Shown here: in pieces, positions 8,153 to 8,282 of the stretch | Position numbering within the stretch: the first letter of the stretch is position 1 | How the letters are laid out: every line of letters begins with the position of its first letter | The notes under the pieces: generated by a model | The model's database searches: none | What the model was told of the DNA's origin: nothing | Seen by the model: the letters and a program-made list of their open reading frames with translations, nothing else | Made by a program: the position numbers and the translations under genes | Source of the DNA: a virus | Strand: one strand, 5' to 3' | Virus record (IMG/VR): IMGVR_UViG_3300029700_000120 | Location: 1-9,657 of that record | DNA length: 9,657 nt

Positions 8153-8191
8153 TATAAAAAAATTCCCCCGACCGCTACCAACAGTCGGAGG
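8153..8191 (-). terminator. Rho-independent terminator oriented for minus-strand transcription
   Basis: On the minus strand, CCTCCGAC and GTCGGGGG form 8 bp (one GU) followed by AATTTTTTT. On the plus strand the same stem has a C.A mismatch and no U-tract. Confidence 0.55.
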
Positions 8192-8219
8192 ATAAGAGTG
8201 TATTGAAACACATATTCGC
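8153..8219 (-). ncRNA. Candidate ~65-nt sRNA carrying an 11-nt match to the integrase SD region
   Basis: It lies between the minus-strand promoter at 8226-8254 and the terminator at 8153-8191. It contains AAUACACUCUU (complement of 8194-8204). That segment can pair with AGGAGUGUAUU (8269-8279) of the int leader. No ORF is present. Confidence 0.4.
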
Positions 8220-8250
8220 AAAATTATTGTATCATATACACTCTGTTTTT
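8195..8250 (+). terminator. Long-loop hairpin plus GTTTTT; possible leaky terminator or attenuator between the cI-toxin operon and int
   Basis: AGAGTGTAT (8195-8203) pairs with ATACACTCT (8236-8244), 9 bp around a 32-nt loop, followed by GTTTTT (8245-8250). Confidence 0.35.
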
Positions 8251-8254
8251 GCAA
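8226..8254 (-). promoter_or_regulatory. Sigma-A-type promoter on the minus strand
   Basis: On the minus strand: TTGCAA (8249-8254), 17-nt spacer, TACAAT (8226-8231). Confidence 0.5.
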
Positions 8255-8282
8255 TACCTAATTTTAAAAGGAGTGTATTAAA

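Follow-up and report, generated by a model that had tools for sequence, protein, structure and literature searches.

The window analyzed here is a 9,657-nucleotide (nt) stretch of viral DNA (positions 1 to 9,657 of IMG/VR record IMGVR_UViG_3300029700_000120). It represents the lysogeny end of a prophage with a low-GC Firmicute type of host, and its nearest relatives are metagenome-assembled genomes of uncultured Clostridia. The tyrosine integrase gene int is preceded, in the same orientation, by a gene for a cI/LexA-like repressor, a gene for a ParE-like toxin, and an acidic open reading frame (ORF) of 78 amino acids (aa), and a gap of 155 nt (8128-8282) separates int from the last of these. 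Within this gap we find a candidate small RNA (sRNA) gene on the minus strand and three short boxes, A, B, and C, on the plus strand, box C being the Shine-Dalgarno (SD) region of int (Table 1). We argue below that the sRNA probably acts as an antisense RNA that limits the translation of the integrase (Int).

Table 1. Features of the window that bear on the control of int
Feature	Position	Strand	Description
cro-like gene	6561-6803	-	Helix-turn-helix (HTH) gene, alongside the early genes
cI/LexA-like repressor gene	6950-7627	+	HTH and S24 peptidase domains (Pfam)
ParE-like toxin gene	7642-7884	+	Identified with Pfam
78-aa acidic ORF	7891-8127	+	No Pfam match
Candidate read-through operon	6950-8127	+	Repressor, ParE-like toxin, and 78-aa ORF; upstream of int, same orientation
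sRNA terminator	8156-8192	-	Stem-loop 8192-8164, then A plus U7 (8163-8156), tail ATTTTTTTAT; consensus scan
Predicted sRNA, ~63 nt	8157-8219	-	5' hairpin (SL1), linker with anti-SD seed AAUACACUCUU, terminator hairpin; predicted fold
Box A, AAGAGTGTATT	8194-8204	+	Mimic of the int SD; in the sRNA-complementary part of the leader; pairs with box B
Possible leader upstream ORF (uORF)	8203-8286	+	27 codons; starts with TTG, 4 nt past the box A AAGAG; stops with TGA, in an ATGA overlap with the int start; status uncertain
sRNA promoter	8226-8254	-	-35 TTGCAA (8254-8249), 17-nt spacer, extended -10 TGaTACAAT (8234-8226); consensus scan
Box B, ATACACTCT	8236-8244	+	Anti-SD; in the spacer of the sRNA promoter; pairs with box A or box C; inverted repeat
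Box C, AGGAGTGTATT	8269-8279	+	SD region of int; ends 3 nt before the int ATG at 8283
int	8283-9308	+	Tyrosine recombinase, 341 aa; Pfam Phage_integrase (3.8e-30) plus N-terminal SAM-like domains; proposed regulated gene

A first-pass annotation of the window had proposed that the gap holds an ORF-less minus-strand transcription unit, read from a promoter TTGCAA-17-TACAAT at 8254-8226 into a minus-strand terminator with a stem of 8 bp. The promoter is present and has, in addition, a TG before its -10 element. The terminator is also present and minus oriented, but its stem is longer than was claimed, with 13 pairs when G-U pairs are allowed. With the transcription start site (TSS) inferred at 7 nt downstream of the -10 element, the predicted RNA is ~63 nt long and begins with a weak 5' hairpin (SL1, 8198-8201 paired with 8208-8211). 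The terminator is specific for its strand: the folding energy is -19.8 kcal/mol on the minus strand versus -9.8 kcal/mol on the plus strand, and the three G-U pairs of the minus-strand stem, which are C-A mismatches on the plus strand, compare with none on the plus strand. Within the window, chance levels were exceeded only modestly, both for the parts of this unit (between 7500 and 9000, 14 promoter-like sites versus 7.2 expected and 2 terminator-like sites versus 0.8 expected) and for the boxes (five occurrences of the box 9-mer with at most one mismatch versus 2.0 expected), and we therefore drew significance from related loci.

With the Int protein and an alignment of Int sequences as queries, collections of genomes, viruses, and metagenomes yielded ~130 loci with Int proteins 24 to 100% identical to that of the window. 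By inspection and an automated scan, a module that consists of an A-run and a hairpin, followed 62 to 107 nt later by a minus-strand promoter, was found before int in ~12 lineages of gut Clostridia prophages with Int identities of 29 to 100%. These are the window family (76 to 100%), L001 (64%), L002 (63%), L088 (50%), L003 (45%, where the module is weaker), L092 (42%), L100 (41%), and L126 and L128 to L134 (29 to 31%). In a short-leader class, the -35 element of the promoter lies 19 to 31 nt 5' of the int start. Scans of viral_contigs with the Int proteins of L001, L002, and L003 added no diversity, and INPHARED gave no DNA match to the module, only matches to tRNAs; the protein search there found streptococcal phages with 28 to 34% identity.

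The module has a sharp boundary. Between cassettes, homology sets in abruptly with the A-run and hairpin. It does not rise above background 5' of the A-run, where the sequences of different loci are unrelated and are mostly co-oriented ORFs that end 2 to 70 nt before the module. The 130 noncoding nt themselves are conserved at least as well as the int coding sequence (86 to 100% versus 54 to 90% between the window and L024). The 215 nt 5' of int are identical in L021, L024, L025, and L028 (and likewise between L007 and L023). Because they are identical although the Int proteins are 99% and 76 to 77% identical to that of the window, the sRNA/leader module and the 5' end of int appear, to judge from these sequences, to recombine as a unit, apart from the rest of int.

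Both the signals and the structure of the predicted sRNA are conserved. The sRNA promoters of the relatives have the same design (TTGAAA-17-TGaTACAAT in L001, TTGATT-17-TGgTATAAT in L002, TTGACT-17-TGaTATAAT in L088, and TTGACA-17-TGgTACAAT in L092), with -10 boxes near consensus across the lineages and an extended -10 in most of them, L126, L128, and L129 excepted. In all 15 representatives compared, the minus-strand promoter scored higher than the best plus-strand candidate; for L128, the automated scan chose another minus-strand site, and the cognate promoter was assigned by hand. All 15 representatives had a terminator that was stabler on the minus strand, where it has one to four G-U pairs versus none or one on the plus. 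When 11 predicted sRNAs were aligned, 4 of the 12 terminator stem pairs showed double compensatory changes, and two stem positions alternated among U-G, U-A, and C-G. The RNAs predicted for the relatives are 62 to 88 nt long and share the layout of a 5' hairpin, a short linker, and the terminator, and a covariance model built from the 11 sRNAs (R1) recovered the family, with a marginal match at the expected place in L131. Rfam gave no match in the gap at an E value of 1 or less when the whole window was searched, and the best matches on 8120-8300 had E values of at least 2, far below the gathering scores. We also considered an sRNA-encoded peptide and rejected it: the ATG ORFs of 12 codons in the window and 16 codons in L007 both lack an SD sequence, and L001 and L088, read by eye, have no counterpart. 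The conservation of promoter and terminator, the compensatory changes in the stem, and the lack of a conserved ORF thus bear out the ORF-less unit that had been proposed, and on this comparison the small minus-strand RNA gene is very probably real. The loop of the terminator hairpin (hairpin at 8164-8192, minus strand) is UUGGUAG in the window family and identical in L128, the Int protein of which is 31% identical to that of the window; several other lineages have UUGCAG, UUGCCG, or UUGGCG. The conserved loop suggests that this part of the RNA may have a role beyond termination, for example, as a contact site.

The direct repeat formed by boxes A and C and their single inverted copy, box B, are present where the first-pass annotation had placed them, and they keep their positions relative to the sRNA gene. 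Without exception, the lineages have box B in the sRNA promoter spacer, box A within the part of the sRNA gene that is transcribed, and box C as the int SD. The box sequences vary among lineages (L002, A GGTGCTATGGTAT, B ATACCATAGCAC, C GGGGTGTTAT; L092, A GGAAATGCAT, B ATACATTTCC, C GGAGATGTAT; L126, A AGAAAGAAA, B TTTCTTTCT, C AGAAAGGGA) but change jointly, with explicit compensatory cases in L001, L002, L092, and L022. In L022, the box B variant ATACGCTCT preserves the pairing as U-G, and it does so on the plus strand only.

A whole-module MAFFT alignment misplaced the boxes of L002, L092, and L126, and we therefore used duplex energies calculated lineage by lineage, shuffles, and permutation of cognate and noncognate partners instead of column-wise pair counts. 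Relative to shuffles, the mean z scores of the duplex energies were -4.3 for A:B, -2.5 for B:C, and -2.8 for sRNA:C. Across 12 lineages, cognate partners formed stronger duplexes than noncognate partners in each case, at -17.8 versus -9.6 kcal/mol for A:B (permutation P < 5e-5), -12.6 versus -8.9 kcal/mol for B:C (P = 1.5e-4), and -14.7 versus -10.5 kcal/mol for sRNA:C (P < 5e-5). The three boxes thus co-vary in related prophages, and all three pairings strengthen the earlier claim that the boxes target the ribosome-binding site (RBS) of int. The B:C pairing was better on the plus strand in 11 of the 15 representatives. The strongest and longest pairing is A:B, which requires a plus-strand transcript with its start 5' of the module.

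No plus-strand terminator-like site was found between 6594 and 9395, and hence none lies between the cI-like gene and int; the hairpin of the sRNA terminator has no U-tail on the plus strand. It had been suggested that the A:B hairpin, which is followed by GUUUUU, is terminator-like. The U-run is absent from L001, L002, L088, and L092, and we rejected an A:B terminator for the window's class. The first-pass annotation had also found no convincing dedicated int promoter. Within the module, no plus-strand promoter is conserved among the 15 representatives, the candidates being weak and differing in position and sequence from lineage to lineage, so that an int promoter inside the module was rejected; that claim nevertheless passes over a weak promoter-like site in the window (TTGAAA-16-TATTGT, 8203-8230, with 9/12 matches), which is not conserved in the relatives. 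Given the absence of a plus-strand terminator and of a conserved plus-strand promoter, and a hairpin without a U-tail, int mRNA is most economically explained by read-through from the cI operon, in keeping with the dependence on read-through that had been proposed for Int.

We then considered how the leader of such a read-through transcript might fold. In the predicted fold of 8128-8310, box A pairs with box B and the SD is mostly open, with a probability of being unpaired of 0.56. When 8153-8219 was held unpaired, mimicking a bound sRNA, box B folded onto box C and this probability fell to 0.11, consistent with the earlier proposal that B:C pairing would occlude the int SD. The change in SD accessibility went in the same direction in 15 of 15 representatives and was large in about seven. 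Direct pairing of the sRNA with the int SD region over 11 bp with one G-U pair, another element of the first-pass annotation, is also possible, through the duplicated box; it would involve the seed AAUACACUCUU and has a predicted energy of -15.6 kcal/mol.

These results suggest the following mechanism. A strong, probably constitutive minus-strand promoter (8254-8226) would make a noncoding RNA of ~63 nt (from ~8219 to ~8157) that would end at an intrinsic terminator near the end of the upstream operon. int would be translated from plus-strand transcripts that enter from the cI/ParE-like operon, and the leader of these transcripts would carry an SD mimic (A), an anti-SD (B), and the real SD (C). 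With A paired to B, the SD would be free. The sRNA, which would be fully complementary to the leader at 8157-8219, box A included, and would share its anti-SD sequence with B, would take A away upon binding, such that B could fold onto C; possibly, it would pair with C directly as well. By either route, the int RBS would be occluded, and Int would be kept low while the lysogeny operon and its cargo were expressed. We put at roughly 60% the probability that a cis-encoded antisense RNA negatively controls Int translation in this manner, whether by the leader switch, by direct pairing with the RBS, or by both. What we infer is the production of the RNA in this element, the negative sign of the regulation, and the relative weight of the structural switch and direct pairing.

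Several observations weigh against this interpretation. In the gap of the window, the three-box pattern, defined as a 9-mer in the SD zone with both a direct and an inverted copy upstream, arises by chance in 3.5% of dinucleotide shuffles. Because the sRNA seed (A') has approximately the same sequence as box B, the A:B, B:C, and sRNA:C complementarities are not independent of one another, and which of the pairings is selected cannot be told from sequence alone. The effect in equilibrium folding is small in about half of the representatives. In L001, L007, and L130 to L132, box A is also part of a local leader hairpin, which could keep A off B without any sRNA, and in the window, the promoter-like site at 8203-8230 could yield an int mRNA that lacks box A. 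The module is absent from ~30 other relatives of Int. In public sequencing runs, the element was found only in unstranded wastewater contigs marked "RNA?," which are possibly DNA; one such contig of 265 nt covers the upstream flank, the leader, and the 5' end of int, and it too could be DNA. In long-leader relatives, sequestering A could favor antitermination and, hence, activation, and the direction of regulation may not be uniform across the family.

The last point is raised by L128 to L134, which carry an extra plus-strand hairpin and U-run between the sRNA promoter and the int SD, ~20 to 60 nt 5' of int, with the G-U pairs of the hairpin on the plus strand. As far as a predicted structure can, this hairpin confirms that sense transcription crosses the region and is regulated. 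In L134, 9 nt of box B form a perfect complement to the 5' arm of the hairpin, which gives an attenuator-like 1:2/2:3/3:4 arrangement in which freed B would block termination. The sRNA might, then, be real and activate int, with the removal of A allowing an antiterminator or some other structure to form, or it might have its main targets elsewhere in trans, among host or phage mRNAs, many RBSs of which an anti-SD seed could reach. We think both quite unlikely. The window's class lacks a plus-strand terminator, and freed B there occludes the SD; the seed co-varies with the cognate int SD; and the sole other seed match in the window, a box-like 9-mer at 873-881, lies inside a long coding frame and was ruled out as a second target. 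A different scheme, the leader-peptide coupling of plasmid R1, would make box A the RBS of a uORF, the ribosomes of which would melt B:C and reinitiate at int, with the sRNA covering the RBS and start of the uORF. The start of the window's uORF (AAGAG-N4-TTG) does lie inside the sRNA-complementary region, and its stop overlaps the int start; 9 of 11 lineages have an ORF that begins in the A region and extends to the int SD, against a shuffle expectation of 3.8, L100 has AAAGGAG-N7-ATG, and L131 and L132 have uORFs of 37 codons that end at ATG+1. However, the ATGA overlap follows automatically from the Met-Lys at the N terminus of Int, the uORF of the window has a TTG start and a weak SD at a spacing of only 4 nt, and neither the peptide sequence nor the reading frame is conserved. 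L003 and L130 have no ORF that runs from the A region to the SD, no ORF is listed for L007, L022, or L092, and the ORFs with an SD-like start in L001 and L002 are short (7 and 13 codons). We regard such coupling as doubtful.

Base pairing with the sRNA might also be dispensable altogether. The sRNA promoter faces the incoming operon and could insulate int by colliding with or occluding incoming polymerases, with B:C alone silencing the remaining read-through and the sRNA being a by-product. In support of this idea, B:C forms in any leader without A, the SD accessibility of short leaders is 0.08 to 0.32, the nested antisense promoter and the cI promoter of phage 80alpha (discussed below) mutually interfere, and IS10 and IS200 use fold-back inhibition against outside transcription. 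Yet insulation of this kind leaves unexplained the conserved two-hairpin RNA body, a dedicated terminator with G-U pairs on the minus strand, and the fact that A-B co-variation is stronger than B-C co-variation, and we consider it unlikely. The boxes could, finally, be DNA sites for a protein (the arm-binding domain of Int, an excisionase, or a repressor) that controls the sRNA promoter, int, or both, given that the 9-mer occurs in three copies (two direct and one inverted) within 85 bp, one of them in a promoter spacer, and that the sites change along with the Int lineage. The differences between copies, however, are mostly transitions that retain G-U pairing on the plus strand (for example, in L002, L022, L092, and L126), and the core common to the boxes is the SD/anti-SD sequence itself, which RNA pairing would lead one to expect but which would have to be fortuitous in a protein site. 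The G-U retention and this core therefore favor RNA pairing over a DNA-binding site. In addition, the A:B half-sites are 27 to 32 bp apart, and the probable operators of the cI-like repressor are of another motif, TTAGGGACA, on which ground the boxes were rejected as cI operators. Protein sites thus seem very improbable, and antisense control of Int translation remains the reading that we prefer.

The genes directly 5' of the module differ from phage to phage. Between the repressor gene and int, other phages carry HepT (L001), HicA (L088), a TM2-domain protein (L126), or unknown membrane proteins, and this variable cargo slot fits an insulating role for the RNA unit. In the window, the ParE/RelE-like toxin gene precedes the 78-aa ORF, which is the reversed gene order if the 78-aa ORF is the antitoxin. 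Upstream of the operon, copies of TTAGGGACA(A/G) occur at 6820-6930, between the divergent cro-like and cI-like genes; one copy forms an inverted repeat, and a strong minus-strand promoter (6870-6842) lies in their midst. These copies are probably repressor operators, unrelated to the boxes 5' of int. A gene for a double zinc-ribbon protein of 56 aa (6374-6544, minus strand) adjoins cro, and a lone plus-strand ORF of 89 aa without a family match (4597-4866) lies amid the minus-strand early genes and may be a moron.

On the other side of int, 52 nt past its stop codon, lies a fragment of 26 nt (9361-9386) that copies the 3' end of a tRNA, from the T-arm through the acceptor to CCA, and that is 77% identical to the 3' end (9575-9600) of an intact tRNA-Lys gene (9525-9600). 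This fragment is probably the att core at this end of the prophage, left by integration into a neighboring tRNA gene. Host-like signals are found around tRNA-Lys, namely, a plus-strand terminator directly after the tRNA fragment (9395-9420), a near-consensus promoter before tRNA-Lys (TTGACA-17-TGcTATCAT, 9464-9492), and a second terminator after it (9606-9632). Because the terminator at 9395-9420 adjoins the tRNA fragment, the first plus-strand terminator past int is outside the phage.

RNAs with a comparable location have been reported from Streptococcus pyogenes. In one study, differential RNA sequencing (dRNA-seq) detected antisense sRNAs of 81 to 91 nt 5' of int in four prophages (SP119_SR034, SR071, SR086, and SR106), with promoters that include ttgcat-17-tgataaaat and ttgttt-17-tgttaaaat in its TSS table, and its authors suggest that these RNAs may silence the integrase in lysogeny (Rosinski-Chupin et al. 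2019, PMC6431027). Another study describes an 89-nt sRNA adjoining int3 of prophage 370.3, Spy_sRNA779816, that was confirmed by Northern blotting (Le Rhun et al. 2016, PMC4829319). This kind of element is, then, known and detected experimentally in S. pyogenes, and its function there is only hypothesized. Like the predicted sRNA of the window, the S. pyogenes sRNAs are intergenic, lie directly 5' of a tyrosine integrase gene and on the opposite strand, have an extended -10 promoter of their own with a 17-nt spacer, adjoining the int RBS, form a two-hairpin RNA, and have an intrinsic terminator a short way from the preceding co-oriented gene; the prophages, too, resemble the window in having a lysogeny operon that runs from the repressor through cargo to int.

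The SR071 promoter is the exact sequence found 5' of int in phages T12 and Javan515, the Int proteins of which are 28% identical to that of the window. Their layout is also that of the window, with a repressor, cargo, an A-run, a hairpin with a plus-strand C-A mismatch, and int, and the module upstream of int is 100% identical between T12 and Javan515 despite different upstream genes. The streptococcal sRNAs differ from the window's in length (81 to 91 nt versus ~63 nt, or 62 to 88 nt in its relatives) and in the place of the promoter: their -35 element and spacer overlap the int start codon and the SD, respectively, whereas the promoter in the window lies 28 nt upstream and has the anti-SD box in its spacer. 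Model R1 found no match in T12 (L136) or Javan515 (L139) at an E value of 1 or less. Direct sRNA:RBS pairing was not significant in phage T12, and the direct-pairing route therefore does not generalize to the streptococcal RNAs. The accessible parts of the literature on the S. pyogenes sRNAs upstream of int contain no description of a co-varying three-box arrangement. In the GenBank entry of T12 (NC_028700), positions 1363-1383 are annotated as "putative integrase regulatory element 1," conserved 5' of int in S. pyogenes, and this element falls inside the region that dRNA-seq later showed to encode SP119_SR071. The annotated int start of T12 (TTG at 1396) is probably too far upstream, and the better fit is the ATG at 1432.

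Both the stability of a prophage in its host and the ease of integration and excision depend on the amount of integrase. The present analysis adds an analogous unit that many uncultured gut Clostridia phages carry and that has no detectable sequence homology to its streptococcal counterparts, and it adds a concrete candidate mechanism, made up of an SD mimic, an anti-SD, an SD, and an antisense RNA over the mimic, for which natural compensatory variants exist. It also suggests why the slot 5' of int tolerates diverse, strongly expressed cargo (ParE-like, HepT, and HicA toxins and membrane proteins), since the RNA unit would insulate int from the cargo genes. If confirmed, the unit could serve as a compact insulator and translational gate for engineered recombinase circuits. 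A bolder view, which we hold to be speculative and rather improbable, is that of a portable RNA switch found across Firmicute prophages, from gut Clostridia to streptococci, that ties Int synthesis to the strength of lysogeny-operon transcription, in which the convergent promoter and the three-box leader (with an attenuator in some cases) form a threshold or bistable device and the sRNA is an activator in some lineages. Were it true, highly expressed cargo, such as toxin-antitoxin (TA) toxins and defense genes, could be carried next to int without destabilizing the prophage.

The CopA/CopT-tap-repA control of plasmid R1, reportedly described by Blomberg, Nordstrom and Wagner in 1992, and the CopG-RNAII-repB layout of plasmid pMV158, reportedly described by del Solar and Espinosa in 1992, resemble the window in their arrangement: the operon begins with a repressor gene, and a short constitutive antisense RNA, a predicted one in the window, comes from the leader region of the distal gene. 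As in R1, the antisense RNA would target the leader 5' of the regulated RBS (in the window, it is the complement of 8157-8219, ~50 nt 5' of the SD), the RBS would lie in a stem (here, the predicted B:C hairpin, which co-varies), and a possible leader ORF would end at the regulated start codon, although the uORF of the window family is not universal and its start signals are weak. Unlike in R1, where the target is a replication initiator, the target here would be a phage recombinase, and the predicted antisense RNA of the window also carries an anti-SD copy, which makes direct pairing with the RBS possible.

Mobile elements offer a second set of parallels. The control of IS10 by RNA-OUT and fold-back inhibition was reportedly described by Davis, Simons and Kleckner in 1985. 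IS200 combines the art200 sRNA with a stem-loop that sequesters the SD and with a terminator at its left end (Ellis et al. 2015, PMC4513863). The likeness to these two elements is that a recombinase would be silenced in layers, by a cis antisense sRNA, by an anti-SD:SD leader hairpin, and by protection from outside transcription. However, art200 and RNA-OUT extend over the SD and start codon of the mRNAs that they control, whereas the sRNA of the window would cover the leader only, with its TSS at 8219 being 50 nt 5' of the SD at 8269. Outside transcription, an accident for IS200 and IS10, is apparently the normal source of int mRNA in the window, where, unlike in IS200, no plus-strand terminator stands between the operon and int.

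Staphylococcal phage 80alpha, with its noncontiguous operon, offers an experimental precedent for read-through as the source of int mRNA: its lysogeny genes as far as int are transcribed from the cI promoter, and ith-1 is nested among them in antisense (Rostol et al. 2024, PMC11087260). The window would share with 80alpha a nested opposite-strand unit with a constitutive promoter, sense and antisense expression opposing each other; the nested unit of 80alpha, however, encodes a protein, Ith-1, and controls a defense gene, whereas that of the window is noncoding and adjoins the int RBS. Antisense-RNA transcription attenuation of the pT181/pIP501 type would call for an intrinsic terminator in the sense leader that forms depending on antisense binding; we found no plus-strand terminator-like site in the gap and no conserved U-run after A:B, but the wider family does have such a feature, in the plus-strand hairpin and U-run of L128 to L134. 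Judged by these likenesses, the closest well-studied functional analogues of the unit before int would be the antisense controls of plasmids R1 and pMV158 and of IS200 and IS10.

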